From: a virus
Lineage: Duplodnaviria; Caudoviricetes
IMG/VR virus record: IMGVR_UViG_3300007214_000006
Direction: 5' to 3' (one strand)
Length of the DNA stretch: 64,000 nt
Each line of letters starts with the position of its first letter. Within the stretch, counting starts at the first letter, position 1. Made by a program: the position numbers and the translations under genes. The notes under the pieces are model-generated. The model was given only the letters and a program-made list of their open reading frames with translations. It was not told where the DNA came from and did not search any database. This document shows positions 2,651 through 63,997 of the stretch, piece after piece.

Positions 2651-3509
2651 TGATGCCATAGAAATAGGTGGCACGAATCTAACTATACTATCAATGTTTG
2701 AAGACAGGCTAAATGAAACTACTAAAATAGCTTGTAAAAATCTCTCCAAACTAGATATTATAAAATATGCTGACCAAATATGGATTATTGGTAATATCAT
2801 GGGTTTGGCACAAAAAACAGATGATACTGTTAAATTCTTATTTGACACTGTGAAAAAATTTGTAAAAATAGAATTTGATTATAATTTTTGTCCATATCGA
2901 GGAGAAATACCTCATCAGAAACTTGGTAAATCTGAATGTTCTTGCCCTTATGGTACAACTGGATTAATACAGTTATCTTTTATTTACGATAAAATCATAG
3001 AAAATAGCAAGCATATTTTTTTTATGTCCGAAAGACAAAGATCAATATACGCTAATCATATGCCATTGCTAGATTTTTCTAAAACTACTATTTTATCTTC
3101 ATGTTTTTCTAAACAATCGTTAAATTTATTTGATTCTTTAAAAGATAGCCCTAAAAATAATAAATATGCTATATTACAAGGTTTCGGGGGATGGCATAGC
3201 GAAGCAAAAGGATGTGATGTTGCCAAAAATTTTTGCACAATTAATAAACTAGATTACGATATTCTTCCTATACAAAAATATGAAGATCATATAAAAACTT
3301 TATCTAAATATAAAGGAATAATATTTTTACCAATAGTAGACGATACATGTCCTAGAGCTATAATCGAAGCAAGATTATTAGGTCTGGATATTATTACAAA
3401 TATTAATAGTCAACATACTACAGAGTGGTGGTGGAAAGATCCAGAAAAAACACTAGAATATATATCATCTAGACCAAAAGTATTCTGGGAAAATATAGAT
3501 AATATATAA
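2628..3509 (+). CDS. glycosyltransferase, GT-B (GT4-like)
   Basis: N-terminal IGGTNLT; C-terminal GIIFLP..DDTCPRAIIEARLLG..IITN donor-binding motif. Confidence 0.7.
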   Translation: MKYVLLDDDAIEIGGTNLTILSMFEDRLNETTKIACKNLSKLDIIKYADQIWIIGNIMGLAQKTDDTVKFLFDTVKKFVKIEFDYNFCPYRGEIPHQKLGKSECSCPYGTTGLIQLSFIYDKIIENSKHIFFMSERQRSIYANHMPLLDFSKTTILSSCFSKQSLNLFDSLKDSPKNNKYAILQGFGGWHSEAKGCDVAKNFCTINKLDYDILPIQKYEDHIKTLSKYKGIIFLPIVDDTCPRAIIEARLLGLDIITNINSQHTTEWWWKDPEKTLEYISSRPKVFWENIDNI

Positions 3510-58589: not shown

Positions 58590-59632
58590 TAACATATTTT
58601 AGATCGTCTAGCTTTAATGCTCATTCTATGTGCGAGCAGCAATATTTTATAGAATATGTTTTGGGTTGGAGAGGACCGTCTGGACAAAAGGCGGACAAAG
58701 GAACAATAGTACACAAAGTGCTAGAAGTATTAGCCGTTATTAAAAAAGCTAAACAAGATAATTTAACATTTATATGCGATGATATCATTGGTAATATTGA
58801 TATAAATAACTATAATCTTGATAATTTAATAGATATAATATACAACCATTACTCACTATCAGCAAAACATCATAAATGGTATCCAAAAGACAAAAAAGAC
58901 TGTGCAGAATGGGTTTATAAGGCTATTAATTTTAATGATGGTATGTTCGATCCCAGAAATAGAAATATTTTGGAACCAGAGCAGCATTTTGATTTTACTA
59001 TAAATAAATCTTGGTCACAATATTCTTATAAAACACCAGATGGAGTTATTTCAGGTAATCTGGCCCTAAAAGGAACTATAGACTTAATAACGTTAGTTAA
59101 TGAAAAAACTATAGAAATTATCGATTGGAAAACAGGAAAAAGATTAGATTGGGCTACTGGCCAAGAAAAAACTCAAGAAAAACTAGAAAATGATCCTCAA
59201 TTAAGAATATATCATTATGCTATCAGTCATTTGTATCCTCAGATCGAACATATAATTTTTTCTATATATTTTATAAATGATGGCGGACCATTCTCTATAT
59301 GTTTTGATAAAAATGATCTTCAAAAAACAGAAGATATGCTAAGACAAAAATTTGATATAATAAAGTCTGCAAAAAGGCCAAAATTGCACAAAAGCTGGAT
59401 GTGTAATAAACTATGTCATTTTGGCAAAACAAATTTTTCTGATTCAAGCATATTGCCTATATTAGAATACAGAGATGGGCAAATATGCAAACAGGGCGAA
59501 TTTATGACTAAATGTGAACAAATCAAACATGATTTAGAGTTGCATGGTATGGATTTTGTTGTACAATCATATAAGCATCCAAATCATTCATTTGGAAAAT
59601 ATAAAGCACCAGGAAGTATAGAAGGAGAATAA
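58583..59632 (+). CDS. PD-(D/E)XK exonuclease, Cas4/AddB-like (proposed ATT start; first ATG is at 58628)
   Basis: S.S....C.Q.Y, GTIVHKVLE, LKGTIDL, IIDWKTG, QLRIY and C-terminal Cys cluster; AAGGAG 9 nt upstream of the ATT at 58583. Confidence 0.8.
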   Translation: MIITYFRSSSFNAHSMCEQQYFIEYVLGWRGPSGQKADKGTIVHKVLEVLAVIKKAKQDNLTFICDDIIGNIDINNYNLDNLIDIIYNHYSLSAKHHKWYPKDKKDCAEWVYKAINFNDGMFDPRNRNILEPEQHFDFTINKSWSQYSYKTPDGVISGNLALKGTIDLITLVNEKTIEIIDWKTGKRLDWATGQEKTQEKLENDPQLRIYHYAISHLYPQIEHIIFSIYFINDGGPFSICFDKNDLQKTEDMLRQKFDIIKSAKRPKLHKSWMCNKLCHFGKTNFSDSSILPILEYRDGQICKQGEFMTKCEQIKHDLELHGMDFVVQSYKHPNHSFGKYKAPGSIEGE

Positions 59633-59635
59633 GTA

Positions 59636-61513
59636 ATGGGCGTGATTAAGGAATATGTTCCTTTACACGTCCATTCCTAAGTGACTCATTATTCACTTTT
59701 GGATGGACTAAGTAAACCAGAACAAATAGCTAAACGATGTCAAAAAATAGGAGCAAGCACGTGTGCAATAACGGATCACGGGACCATATCCGGATCCGTT
59801 CAGTTTTATGCTTCTATGAAAAAATACGGAATTAAACCAATCCTAGGATGCGAATTATATATCAGTCATAATGATTGTATGATAAAAAGTCCAGATAATT
59901 CAAAATTAAGTCATTTCATAATTTTAGCTAAAAACTATGAGGGTTGGAAATCTTTAATAAAAATAGTATCTAAAACAAATACTCCTGATGTATTTTATCA
60001 TAAGCCAAGAATAGATATAGATACTTTGTTACCATACCTGGATGGCAATATTATTGGTTTTGCTGGTCATCTCGGTTCTGTTATAGCTAACGCCATAAAA
60101 GACCAGGATTCGAACTATACAATCAATTTGATTCAAAAATTAAAAGATGGTTTTGGTGAGAATAATTTTTTTCTTGAGTCTCAACTAATAGATCAAGAAC
60201 AAAATATTGATCAAATTAATTTAACAAAAGAAGTTAGAAGACTGGCACAGATCACAAAAACAAAAGTCATAGCTACTCCAGATGCTCATTATTGCGAATC
60301 TGATGATGCTGTTGATCAAAGAATTTTATTATGCAATAATTTAAAAACAACATTAACAGAGATAAATAGAAAGCTTATTGCAGATGAAGAGGCTCCTATG
60401 TCATGTTTTTTTAAATCTGATAAGTATCATATTCCAAATTTTGACGAAATGAATAATATACATTCTACAGAAGAGCTGTATAATACGATAGAATTAGCAA
60501 ATATGTGCGAAGATTATGATATTACAAATAAGCCAATGCTGCCTTTATTTAAATGTCCTAATTCTGATACTCCAGATGCATATCTTAGGCAATTATGTCG
60601 TAATGGATGGAAAGAAAAAATAGCCAATAATATACCTTCAAATATACAGGAAGAATATGTTGATAGAATCAAATACGAATTATCTGTTTTACAGGGCGCT
60701 GGGTTGTCCAGCTATTTTTTAATAGTGCAGGACATAGTGAACTATGTATCTTCTAATGGGTGGCTTCCTGGTCCCGGAAGAGGTAGCGCTGCTGGTTGTC
60801 TTGTGTCTTATCTAATAGGAATAACAAGTATAGATCCGATAAAAAATAATTTAATTTTTGAAAGATTCTATAATGCAGGAAGGAATACGAGCGACAGAGT
60901 TTCTATGCCAGATATAGATGTTGATGTTCCGATCAACAAACGAGAAGCTGTAGTAGAATATATAAAAAATAAATATGGCCATGATAAAGTGTCTCAAATG
61001 ATTACTTTTAATACGATGAAAGGTCGTGGCGCTCTTAAAGAAGTCCTTAGAGTTTATGGAAATATATCTTTTGACGAAATGAATAAAATTACAAAATACA
61101 TACCAGATGAAGCAAAAATAGCGGATGAATTACAAGAAATGAAAGAAGAAACAGGAGAGGCGTCCATTATTAGATGGGCTTTAGAAAATAATGTTGACAA
61201 ACTCAAGGAATGGTGTTATTTATTAGATGACGGTACGCTCGCCGGACCGCTTGCTAAAAGATTCGAACAAGCAATTAGACTAGAAGGAACCAAATCTAAT
61301 CAGTCAAAGCATGCTGCTGGAGTCGTTATATCTCAAGAAAAATTATCGGAGATTTGCCCAATGGTTTATGATAGTAAAAATAAACAGCTAATAGCAGGAA
61401 TGGAAATGCAAGATCTAGAATCTTTAGGTGTAATCAAATTTGATATCCTAGGCATAGCCATGTTAGATAAAATTATGAATATTTCACAAATATTAGCTAA
61501 AGAAGGAGTTTAA
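59636..61513 (+). CDS. dnaE: DNA polymerase III alpha, N-terminal part (PHP plus palm), with an in-frame TAA at 59678-59680
   Basis: MGVIKEYVPLHVHS*VTHYSLLDG, AITDHG, KPILGCE, DAHY, GPGRGSAAG, FERFYN, MPDIDVD, HAAGVVI, KFDILG. Confidence 0.9.
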
Positions 61514-61514
61514 A

Positions 61515-61694
61515 ATGAATAAAGTTTTTTCAGAATTAGCTATCGGAGATAGATTTGAACTAAATGGAAATAGTTATATTAAAATTCAAGAAGTAAGAGT
61601 TAGTTGTTGCAGATCAATAAATGCTCAGGACGCAAATAATCCGTCGAGCAAAACGTTTGTGCAAGCAACAACCACGGTGACAGTTAATGCCTAA
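61515..61694 (+). CDS. 59-aa hypothetical protein between the dnaE halves (not in ORF track)
   Basis: MNKVFSELAIGDRFELNGNSYIKIQEVRVSCC...; AAGGAG RBS; stop overlaps the next gene. Confidence 0.7.
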   Translation: MNKVFSELAIGDRFELNGNSYIKIQEVRVSCCRSINAQDANNPSSKTFVQATTTVTVNA

Positions 61695-62388
61695 TTTTCA
61701 AAAAATATGTGTGTTTGATATGGAAACTGACGGGGTTAACCCTGATCAGTGTAGTCCTGTGCAGATTGCTGCTGTTATTGTAGATCCAATAAAACTAGAA
61801 ATAGTTAAAGATTCCGAATTTAATATTAATTTAAAGCCAGAATTATTAGAAAATAATATAAGTTACAAATATGAAGATAGTGATGTTCTTGACTTTCATT
61901 CAAAAGTACGAGGTTGCTCCAAGTCTTCTATATTAGAATCTTGGGGCAAATACCAATCACAAGAGGCTGGTTGGAAAATGTTCGTTTCGTATCTTGAAAT
62001 GTATCATACAAAGTCTAACGGAACTAAAAAATCCTGCTTTTCTGCACCAATAGCTGCTGGCTTTAATATAAATAAATTTGATTTACGAATTATAGAGAGG
62101 CTTAGTGTAAAATATAATTCTCTAAATAAAGAAGGCAGATCCTCGTTGTTTTATCCCAGAGATGTAATTGATGTAATGAATCTTTTATTTTATTGGTTTG
62201 AATATAATAATGAACTTAAAAACTATACACTAGATAATCTAAGAGATTATTTGGGTATAGATAAAACTAATGCTCATGATGCATTAAAAGATGTGAAGGA
62301 CACAGCCAATATCATGATAAGGTTTTTAAAATTGCATAGAAACCTGTCTAATAAAGTTAAATTTAAAGGATCTTTTGTAAATGCCTAA
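61687..62388 (+). CDS. DEDDh 3'-5' exonuclease (DnaQ/epsilon-like)
   Basis: VFDMETDG, AGFNINKFD, IDVM, AHDALKDV. Confidence 0.88.
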   Translation: MPNFQKICVFDMETDGVNPDQCSPVQIAAVIVDPIKLEIVKDSEFNINLKPELLENNISYKYEDSDVLDFHSKVRGCSKSSILESWGKYQSQEAGWKMFVSYLEMYHTKSNGTKKSCFSAPIAAGFNINKFDLRIIERLSVKYNSLNKEGRSSLFYPRDVIDVMNLLFYWFEYNNELKNYTLDNLRDYLGIDKTNAHDALKDVKDTANIMIRFLKLHRNLSNKVKFKGSFVNA

Positions 62389-63997
62389 ATGGTCTTTTGA
62401 TTGCGGATGTTGTTTTGATATCATTGAGAATAATGGAGAGAAACATAAGTTATTATTTTCTCCAAAAATTGAATCTATAAATTTATGTTGCGCTAAAACA
62501 TGGGAATTGATTTCTTCTGGAAACACTAAAGGATGTTTCCAGTTAGAATCTAGATTAGGCCAAATGATGGCTAAAAAATTAAAACCAGAAAATATAGAAC
62601 AATTATCTGGACTAATCAGTATACTTAGGCCGGGATGCCTAGAAGCAATAAGAGATGGGAAAAGCGTAACAAACCATTATATAGATAAAAAAAATGGTCT
62701 GGAATCTATTAATTATTTCCATGAGGCTCTGGAGACCTCATTAAGTACCACCTACGGGGAAATGATATACCAAGAACAGGCTATGTCTATCGCAAAAGAT
62801 TTGGCTGGATTCGATTTACAAGAAGCAGATTCTTTAAGAAAAGCTATCGGAAAAAAGAAACCAGAAGAAATGGCAAAAGTTAAACAAAAATTTTTAGATG
62901 GCACAAAAAAACTTAATATAGTCAATCAAAAAGAAGCAGAAGAAATCTTTGGATGGATAGAAAAAAGTCAAAGATATTCATTCAATAAATCTCACGGTAT
63001 TTCATATGCTATGAACGCATATTTATCGGCGTATGCTAAAGCCCATTTTCCGGAAGCCTTTTTTGTTTCTTATTTAAAATTTGCTAAGGACAAAATAGAC
63101 CCACAACAAGAAATCAAAGAATTAATTAAAAATGCCACGGAAATGGATATAAATATCTGTCTGCCAGATTTAAGACTACAAAACTCTAATTTCGGAATCT
63201 TTAATAATAAAATTTATTTTGGTTTAACAGACATAAAGGGTGTTGGGGACTCAGTGTTTGCTAAATTATCGGATATATGTAAAAATATTGATCTATATAA
63301 AATATCATGGACTGAACTGCTTATCAAAATTTTATTAAATATAAATTCCACAGCGGCTAAAGCTTTGATTTCTAGCGGAGCAATTGATTATCTTAATAAA
63401 AATCGTACAGAAATGTTGTTTGATCTAGAAATAATAAGCTCTCTTACTAAAAAAGAATTAGAATACATTGCGCCTATACTATCGAACACCATTACCTTAA
63501 AAGATATTATGAGTTATCTTATTAATTACTCAAAAGTGAATACAAAAAGAAAACAAGCAATACAAAGCTTATTGCAAACTATTAAAAATCCGCCGTATTC
63601 CTTAATAGATAAAATAGAATGGTTAGCAGATACGGAGTCATCTTTATTGGGTACGGCGATCTCTTGCTCAAAATTAGACACATATGACATAGAAATGACA
63701 AACACAGATTGCAAAACATTTAAAACTACAAATAGTATTTCTAATATTATAATGGCTGGAGAAATTACTAATATTAATATTATAAAAACAAAAAAAGGAA
63801 AATTATCCGGTCAAGAAATGTCTTTTGTCTCAATAGAAGATCAAACTGGTTCTCTAGATTCTGTGATATTTTTTCCAGAAATCTATGCAAAATATAAACA
63901 CCATTTATTCGAAAATAATATTTTAATATTTGTGGGAAATAAGAGCAAAACAAAGGATGGTTTGATTGTGGATAAGTGTTTTGTGCCTAGGTCTTGA
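62381..63997 (+). CDS. dnaE: DNA polymerase III alpha, C-terminal part (fingers, HhH, OB fold)
   Basis: TWELI..G.TKGCFQLES, LRPG, TYG.MIYQEQ, LRKAIGKKK, YSFNKSH, FGLTDIKGVG, TKKG..MSF..IED. Confidence 0.92.
   Translation: MPKWSFDCGCCFDIIENNGEKHKLLFSPKIESINLCCAKTWELISSGNTKGCFQLESRLGQMMAKKLKPENIEQLSGLISILRPGCLEAIRDGKSVTNHYIDKKNGLESINYFHEALETSLSTTYGEMIYQEQAMSIAKDLAGFDLQEADSLRKAIGKKKPEEMAKVKQKFLDGTKKLNIVNQKEAEEIFGWIEKSQRYSFNKSHGISYAMNAYLSAYAKAHFPEAFFVSYLKFAKDKIDPQQEIKELIKNATEMDINICLPDLRLQNSNFGIFNNKIYFGLTDIKGVGDSVFAKLSDICKNIDLYKISWTELLIKILLNINSTAAKALISSGAIDYLNKNRTEMLFDLEIISSLTKKELEYIAPILSNTITLKDIMSYLINYSKVNTKRKQAIQSLLQTIKNPPYSLIDKIEWLADTESSLLGTAISCSKLDTYDIEMTNTDCKTFKTTNSISNIIMAGEITNINIIKTKKGKLSGQEMSFVSIEDQTGSLDSVIFFPEIYAKYKHHLFENNILIFVGNKSKTKDGLIVDKCFVPRS

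Follow-up and report, generated by a model that had tools for sequence, protein, structure and literature searches.

A candidate short translational bypass at the start of a phage replicative DNA polymerase gene

Efficient programmed translational bypassing is, to our knowledge, established by experiment only for the T4 gene 60 family and for one yeast mitochondrial lineage; the bypass in T4 gene 60 was reportedly described by Huang in 1988. Here a site resembling these systems was analysed at the 5' end of dnaE, the replicative polymerase gene, in a 64,000 nucleotide (nt) stretch of viral DNA (Duplodnaviria; Caudoviricetes; IMG/VR record IMGVR_UViG_3300007214_000006). This whole stretch is termed the window, and all features described lie on its plus strand. 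After 14 codons the gene is interrupted by a short insert that begins with a stop codon, and comparison with related phages indicates that the site is probably a programmed translational bypass, i.e. a ribosome hop, with an architecture like that of gene 60 but short, the putative cassette measuring roughly 75–95 nt.

In T4 gene 60 a coding gap of 50 nt is bypassed, and homologues occur in topoisomerase genes of myoviruses (bioRxiv 10.1101/2022.08.31.505936). The gene 60 elements include a take-off codon on the 5' side of a stem-loop, a stop codon that occupies the A site and a 5' stem-loop formed upon leaving the ribosome (bioRxiv 10.1101/2022.08.31.505936; 10.1101/2024.12.09.627546), and pairing on the exit side has been proposed as the driver of forward movement (bioRxiv 10.1101/2024.12.09.627546). 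In gene 60 a peptide signal in the exit tunnel acts 25–30 residues from the P site. Synthetic 'stop-hops' were obtained in E. coli reporters (Weiss et al. 1987), and are characterized by low efficiency, artificial constructs and no dedicated RNA structure (PMC5009743). According to Atkins et al. 2016, natural in-frame stop hopping was not known and short-distance natural counterparts had 'long been presumed' (PMC5009743). The byps of Magnusiomyces capitatus mitochondria (Lang 2014; Nosek 2015) are 27–55 nt long, present in 81 copies and spread like mobile GC clusters; they place an unused sense codon in the A site and require special mitochondrial ribosomes (PMC5009743). Pairing of take-off and landing triplets at two of three positions is tolerated in these byps (PMC5009743). 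A search of the full-text literature returned no published description of a bypass in dnaE.

In the window, a Shine-Dalgarno (SD) sequence AAGGAG (59622..59627) precedes an ATG at 59636 that opens coding segment 1 (59636..59677), a run of 14 codons, MGVIKEYVPLHVHS, holding the HxH of PHP motif I. This is followed by TAA, by GTG ACT and then by CAT TAT TCA CTT TTG GAT GGA (HYSLLDG), in a single frame throughout from the ATG. A preliminary description made from the sequence alone had reported this arrangement together with an excess of exactly 9 nt, and both were confirmed, the reference for extra bases being 59 uninterrupted homologues that read H-x-H-S-H-Y-S-L-L-D-G. It had also remarked that the open reading frame (ORF) track hides the upstream codons, and the 610-aa ORF in the mechanical ORF list does begin at the GTG at 59681. 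The protein encoded by this shorter ORF matched the Pfam domains PHP (PF02811, E = 5e-34) and DNA_pol3_alpha (PF07733, E = 5e-76). As the PF02811 match enters at profile position 6, which corresponds to residue 2 of the GTG-initiated ORF, the first five profile positions, i.e. the HxH strand, are located in the upstream 14 codons. HVH in segment 1 and the DNA_pol3_alpha domain downstream are what is expected of the PHP domain of a DnaE (Pol III alpha) protein. Coding segment 2 runs from 59687 to a stop at 61511-61513.

The interruption was found to be widespread. A protein-based scan of IMG/VR gave 80 loci with DnaE N-fragments 69–90% identical, of which 59 carry a continuous gene reading M-x(2-4)-Y-x-P/V-L-H-x-H-S-H-Y-S-L-L-D-G while 21, in addition to the window, carry an insert beginning TAA or TAG at the same place. 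A DNA pattern scan then placed a stop-initiated gap at exactly the same site in 73 IMG/VR contigs from about 62 datasets, and a codon-degenerate pattern for P-L-H-V-H-S-stop added one further contig, L165. The gap follows directly on CAY GTC CAT TCY in these 73 contigs and in the window, and its removal always restores HVHS-(H/M)-(Y/F)SLLDG, as in the 59 uninterrupted homologues. The downstream ORF was intact, at 607–620 aa, in 81/81 loci, and Y-x-P-L-H-V-H-S is kept in segment 1 even though the Leu before HVH uses 5 synonymous codons. Both coding segments are under selection. In the reservoir metagenome run X1, independent contigs cover the site with the window allele and two other variants; over window positions 59647-59730 these read as the window type, as TCT TAG GTG with two extra bases, and as TCT TAG AGA ATC A. 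With at least three cassette variants in one reservoir metagenome, related phages with different gaps co-occur and could recombine.

The gap was taken to run from the end of the Ser codon up to the codon that aligns with the His following Ser in continuous genes, and was compared over 49 distinct site sequences, hereafter alleles. In the window it comprises the 9 nt of TAAGTGACT (59678..59686), which follow the proposed take-off codon TCC (Ser14, 59675..59677), start with TAA (59678-59680) as the slow A-site codon, and end with ACT (59684-59686) as the proposed landing triplet; CAT (His, 59687..59689) is the proposed resume codon, the first to be decoded after the hop, at the position where uninterrupted homologues read HVHS-H-YSLLDG. 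Gap lengths of 10 nt (18 alleles), 11 nt (17) and 9 nt (9) predominated, with 8 nt in 3 alleles and 12 nt and 6 nt in 1 each. Only 11/49 alleles are in frame, 18/49 are shifted by +1 and 20/49 by +2, so that in 38/49 the gap is not a multiple of 3. A gap of 6–12 nt that begins with a stop and spans three frames cannot be coding. The take-off codon is TCC or TCT and the next codon TAA or TAG without exception in the interrupted alleles, and the gap always ends N-C-N: TCT, TCA or TCC in 30/49 alleles and ACT, GCT or GCC in 19/49. No earlier TC occurs inside the gap in any of the 49. Segment 1 is 14 codons long in 39/49 alleles, and the nascent chain at take-off would number 13–15 residues. A side observation concerns the pairing of triplets: landing triplet ACT goes with take-off codon TCC in 10/10 distinct alleles and take-off codon TCT with TCT, TCA, GCT and TCC, an association that may be phylogenetic. 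Contig L165 (3742-3852) holds a minimal variant, CAC GTC CAC TCT TAA TCT CAT, with a 6-nt gap and identical take-off and landing codons.

Three RNA helices are specific to the interrupted alleles, namely a 5' stem-loop, an inner hairpin and an outer helix. The 5' stem-loop takes up the whole of segment 1 in the window (−19.2 kcal/mol, z = −5.4) and leaves the SD sequence outside; an AGGAG-like sequence is conserved at the same place in an alignment of 50 sequences, A1. It is formed from sequence just upstream of the take-off codon, as the first 9 nt of the ORF (arm U, 59636..59644, ATGGGCGTG, the start codon plus codons 2-3) are the reverse complement, with one G.U, of the 9 nt immediately before that codon (shared arm X, 59666..59674, CACGTCCAT, the H-V-H codons). 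The arms pair as ATGGACGTG with CACGTCCAT in 13 distinct sequences and as ATGGACATG with CATGTCCAT in 15, G.U variants such as ATGGGCGTG of the window being found as well. Across A1, 99.3% of cells in the 9 pairs were paired, versus 24–47% when the partner was slid, and one pair covaries (GC 28 / AU 20 / GU 2). In L165 the closing pair GTG...CAC replaces ATG...CAT, a compensatory change. L165 keeps the 5' stem-loop at −21.6 kcal/mol with its 3' hairpin almost gone (−5.0 kcal/mol), which suggests that the 5' stem-loop is the indispensable helix. The apical helix of the window structure (AAGGAA/UUCCUU) was rejected as a fixed feature since only 52% of cells pair in fixed columns; some apical helix forms in each allele, in variable register.

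The inner hairpin has the gap, including the stop from its base 1 or 2, as 5' arm and the Tyr-Ser-Leu codons as 3' arm. In the window these arms are AAGTGA (59679-59684, within the gap) and TCACTT (59693..59698, Ser-Leu codons). The hairpin had been noted before as a weak one; its location stands, but it is part of a much larger structure, the segment 59655-59725 folding at −24.7 kcal/mol compared to −9.6 ± 2.7 for shuffled sequences (z = −5.5). The helix is 5–8 bp long in 47/48 alleles, and its compensatory changes follow synonymous codon choice, with pairs at the Ser third position of T:A 35, A:T 4 and C:G 3, at the Tyr third position of G:C 19 and A:T 14, and at the Leu third position of A:T 35 and T:A 10. 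Covariation was counted free of register, because a count by column on the MAFFT alignment hides it, the stem beginning at stop base 1 in TAG-AGA types and at stop base 2 in TAA-GTGA types. Mean helix length was 7.0 bp, versus 6.08 ± 0.11 when gaps were permuted among alleles. The outer helix, in which the shared arm, read as GTCCATTC (59669-59676), pairs with GGATGGAC (arm D, 59701..59708, Asp-Gly-Leu codons), was predicted unaided by RNAalifold and is kept in 50/50 sequences with 8/8 pairs. It takes in TC of the take-off codon, which is thereby placed on the stem's 5' side. The outer helix is invariant; compensatory changes were seen in the 5' stem-loop and the inner hairpin. The two larger helices, joining the start codon region to CACGTCCAT and GTCCATTC to GGATGGAC, had been missed in the preliminary description. 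Outer helices of the minimum free energy fold of the window (UUUAC/GUAAA and UGUUC/GAACA) were discarded as they are not conserved in the interrupted family.

Folding energies and codon choice separate the two classes of allele. The mean fold of 48 interrupted alleles was −18.8 kcal/mol for the 5' stem-loop and −19.6 kcal/mol for the 3' hairpin, versus −3.6 and −3.5 for the same segments in 42 continuous alleles. Counted over the 18 interrupted alleles found by protein similarity, the Val codon is GTC in 18/18 versus 1/42 continuous alleles and the second Ser is TCN in 18/18 versus 19/42; Asp is GAT in 18/18 and Gly is GGA in 16/18, and a fixed choice of GAT GGA CTN is confined to interrupted alleles. 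The helices make free use of G.U pairs, which identifies the structure as one of the sense-strand RNA rather than of DNA or the antisense strand. A search of Rfam with 59400-59900 gave no known RNA family at E ≤ 1. Both the 5' stem-loop and the outer helix draw on GTCCAT, for which they compete, and their energies are almost equal. As an observation in its own right, the overlap between the 5' stem-loop and the 3' hairpin (59636-59708) looks like a two-state RNA switch.

Coupling of the 5' stem-loop to the gap was evaluated by a scan whose pattern was the 5' stem-loop type of segment 1, blind to downstream sequence. This returned 50 viral contigs and 16 true metagenome contigs, all with a stop and a gap; a 5' stem-loop without a gap, or with a longer gap, was not seen among these matches.

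The dnaE site would function in the manner of gene 60 without belonging to the gene 60 family. As in gene 60, two ORF segments would yield one protein, the take-off codon is immediately followed by a stop (without exception TAA or TAG after TCY in the interrupted alleles), and resumption is possible in any frame. The take-off codon likewise sits on the 5' side of a stem-loop, here with TC in the outer helix, an upper part that starts at the stop and covariation at three pairs, and the sequence immediately preceding the take-off site forms a 5' stem-loop of its own. Both sites fall in a metal-binding motif, in each case that of an essential replication enzyme with a gene that is likewise split, and both are patchily distributed over the tree of the host gene. 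The gap, however, is 6–12 nt compared to 50 nt in gene 60, and the landing triplet is in or at the loop of the take-off hairpin whereas in gene 60 landing takes place far beyond it. The dnaE nascent chain of 14 residues leaves no room for a tunnel signal of the KKYK type. The dnaE 5' stem-loop is conserved, covaries and includes the start codon, unlike that of the gene 60 family, which is not conserved, and no homing endonuclease lies within 3 kb. Gene (dnaE), codons (Ser TCY) and phage group all differ, and the two cassettes are not homologous in sequence.

The other described systems are further removed. With synthetic stop-hops the dnaE site would share the crossing of a stop by peptidyl-tRNA to a nearby matching codon, L165 (TCT TAA TCT) being exactly such a form; it differs in lying in an essential gene, in hops of 8–12 nt and in its conserved helices. 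Like the mitochondrial byps it is a short non-coding insert in an essential gene that would be bypassed with imperfect take-off and landing triplets tolerated, but it is a single site per genome with gene-specific helices in a bacterial virus. A Streptomyces case resembles it in having a short coding gap in a phage gene, a slow A-site codon, an SD-like element and comparative support only; there the slow codon is a rare UUA sense codon instead of a stop, the role proposed is regulatory, and the gene and structures are others.

The site is conserved, independent of reading frame and built into covarying helices, and the arrangement of these elements, being that of gene 60, leads us to read it as a short programmed bypass. 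The hop itself and the role of each helix are our inference. Before translation the 3' hairpin would hold the shared arm so that the AUG stays free. Ribosomes would initiate at ATG 59636, translate 14 codons and come to a halt while peptidyl-tRNA-Ser is on TCC (59675-59677) and the A site contains the stop TAA; decoding there would be prevented by the stop together with the inner hairpin. At take-off the tRNA would unpair and the 5' stem-loop zip up behind the ribosome, drawing the mRNA forward over a distance roughly equal to its lower stem; the 9–10 bp of this stem would supply the pull and set the hop distance. After 9 nt of mRNA have been threaded, the tRNA would re-pair on the N-C-N triplet ACT (59684-59686), and decoding would restart at CAT 59687 to give a single protein, ...LHVHS-HYSLLDG..., with the spacing of uninterrupted homologues. 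The hop product would contain the joined peptide EYVPLHVHSHYSLLDGLSKPEQIAK.

Several points weigh against this proposal. The joined DnaE product is deduced by comparison and not from RNA or protein. The landing triplet of the window, ACT, is not a Ser codon, and in 19/49 alleles the first base of the triplet is A or G, so that pairing is two of three at best; when A or G, this base is part of the inner stem. The landing triplet also sits at the top of the inner stem or at the start of the loop, for which gene 60 offers no precedent. An exit-tunnel peptide signal of the gene 60 type is impossible given that only 13–15 residues have been made at take-off (14 in the window). With the AUG buried in the 5' stem-loop, initiation should be impeded whenever the alternative fold does not form. 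For this phage alone, readthrough or re-initiation is conceivable as the window gap is in frame and contains an in-frame GTG. Finally, the resume codon is ATG in several interrupted lineages (L084, L088, L095, L105, L112, L136 and relatives), which read M-Y/F-S-L-L-D-G; the ATG is preceded by GGTGGG or AAGTGA, and Met at this position occurs in 0/42 distinct continuous alleles. This hints at a second expression route for segment 2, and an independent start for segment 2 may have evolved beside the hop in these lineages.

Termination at TAA after a 14-residue peptide followed by re-initiation at GTG 59681, or at ATG in some relatives, is the alternative that fares best, and we regard it as unlikely. 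The product would be a DnaE N-fragment in which PHP motif I lacks its first two His; the small peptide would be discarded or bound non-covalently. The in-frame GTG of the window lies 6 nt before the resume codon, a start codon is present in the gap or at the resume codon in 24/49 distinct alleles, the ATG resume codon occurs only in interrupted alleles, and the gap is purine-rich and SD-like (AAGTGA, AGGTGG). Against this, the downstream frame lacks any ATG, GTG or TTG in 21/49 alleles, and in 4 others the only such codon lies 33 nt upstream, in segment 1, so that re-initiation, which had been listed among the options in the preliminary description, cannot be general. The GTG is moreover structural, forming part of the 5' arm of the hairpin, and does not lie in frame in alleles with 10- or 11-nt gaps. 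What segment 1 encodes is exactly the N-terminal strand conserved in the homologues, with selection on its amino acids maintained, and re-initiation gives no role to the invariant C of N-C-N or to the 5' stem-loop.

Removal of the gap at the RNA level, by a micro-intron or by hairpin-guided cleavage and ligation, would leave a continuous mRNA for translation and is a shade more doubtful still. It would suit a site within a strong, covarying RNA structure, and the ambiguous boundaries of excision would rebuild the Ser codon whatever the first base of N-C-N. However, a gap of 8–12 nt, or 6 nt in L165, is far below any known self-splicing core and leaves no room for one, and the structure has no match in Rfam and differs from a bulge-helix-bulge. 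A stop that never fails to follow the Ser codon, and a gap free of any earlier TC, are marks of decoding rather than of splicing. Neither a ligase nor an endonuclease gene is linked to the site, and synteny is the same in interrupted and uninterrupted loci. The group I boundary rule invoked previously, with U before the insert and G at its end, turned out to be a by-product of choosing TCCTAAGTG as the insert; in the family the boundaries fall between TCY and TAR and after NCN. By the same token, the family parse of TCC, TAAGTGACT and CAT gives HVH-S-HYSLLDG and not the HVH-T-HYSLLDG that had been proposed, and the CATT direct repeat around the insert is not a family feature.

Stop-codon readthrough in the in-frame allele would add three residues, the product reading HVHS-X-V-T-HYSLLDG. 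Readthrough can be stimulated by a hairpin downstream, and the window gap of 9 nt is in frame. With 38/49 gaps out of frame, including 8- and 10-nt gaps that share the ACT triplet of the window, readthrough cannot be general, and a three-residue insertion in the HxH-S-x-Y-S strand was never found in the 59 uninterrupted loci; we consider this explanation very improbable. A lesion or sequencing artefact, i.e. a dead or dying gene or a functionless templated insertion in a quasi-palindrome, can be dismissed for all practical purposes, for although coding sequence nearby has the insert as its reverse complement, as template switching in a quasi-palindrome would produce, it recurs throughout the contigs and datasets of the pattern scan in polymerases only 69–90% identical, with intact ORFs and compensatory changes, and is confirmed by the independent X1 contigs. 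The stop after 14 codons is real and is neither a lesion nor an assembly error; quasi-palindrome template switching may well be the origin of the insert. With lesion, readthrough and re-initiation excluded as general explanations, what remains is a mechanism for linking two frames at one constant position, and the short ribosomal hop, one of the options raised initially, is the one singled out by the comparative data.

The distribution of the putative bypass cassette was examined on a tree of the polymerase body. Interrupted alleles are scattered, requiring at least 9 changes, at least 7 of which are forced by well-supported branches. A single origin of the interrupted alleles as one clade was rejected (AU test p = 8e-07, delta lnL 385). 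Comparison of 22 interrupted with 59 uninterrupted loci gave no ORF cluster specific to the former within ±3 kb. Linkage to a homing endonuclease as in gene 60, i.e. a MobA-type mobile cassette, was also rejected, no such gene being present within ±3 kb and synteny being identical in both classes. A long co-conversion tract was discarded as well, since interrupted alleles belonging to different clades show no elevated identity to one another beyond the first 60 nt after the site, nor in the upstream gene. Scattered alleles in the same gene order with no raised similarity outside the cassette imply that the cassette was either swapped as a short patch or lost many times.

Two continuous alleles, L026 and L027 (about 2960-3030), are the only ones with Thr for Ser, reading CAC GTC CAT ACT CAC TAT (HVHT). 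They share the codons GTC CAT with the interrupted alleles, of which these codons are otherwise characteristic, and adjoin the clade of the window in the tree. They resemble a precise deletion of TCCTAAGTG from a window-type allele, yet start with MKNY and are without the 5' stem-loop.

A wider interpretation is possible and is put forward tentatively, with less confidence than the bypass itself. The cassette might be a self-contained bypass device independent of the nascent peptide, with the 5' stem-loop as motor for hops of 8–12 nt, that doubles as an initiation-bypass switch dosing the polymerase and, in view of its patchy occurrence with no endonuclease, constitutes a new selfish or regulatory recoding module exchanged between freshwater jumbo phages. 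As the AUG would be free only in the 3' fold, initiation would be coupled to bypass in such a switch.

About 50 natural variants of a very small cassette, spread over three frames, constitute a resource for questions on bypassing, among them whether mRNA pairing at the ribosome exit drives bypass and what minimum is needed for a hop. The covarying 5' stem-loop is relevant in this respect since the role of its gene 60 counterpart is debated on account of its being non-conserved there. Gene callers truncate the interrupted dnaE at the internal GTG or split the gene, meaning that in a widespread group of freshwater phages the replicative polymerase will be wrongly called by annotation pipelines.

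The neighbourhood of dnaE is a replication module, in the order Toprim primase, dNMP kinase, PD-(D/E)XK nuclease, DnaE N-fragment, 59-aa ORF, DnaQ-like exonuclease and DnaE C-fragment. No tRNA genes were found in the window. Megablast of the region against GenBank phages gave no match and the best tblastn hit was at most 35% identical; with no close match among sequenced isolates, there is no annotated precedent in a cultured relative. The polymerase gene (59636-63997) is split after KFDILG into the 610-aa N-fragment and a C-fragment of at least 538 aa, the latter carrying the finger, HhH and OB domains, and the 59-aa ORF and a 233-aa DnaQ-like (RNase_T) exonuclease gene lie between the two. 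This gene order is common to essentially all 81 loci (L001–L080 and the window), with or without the hop cassette.

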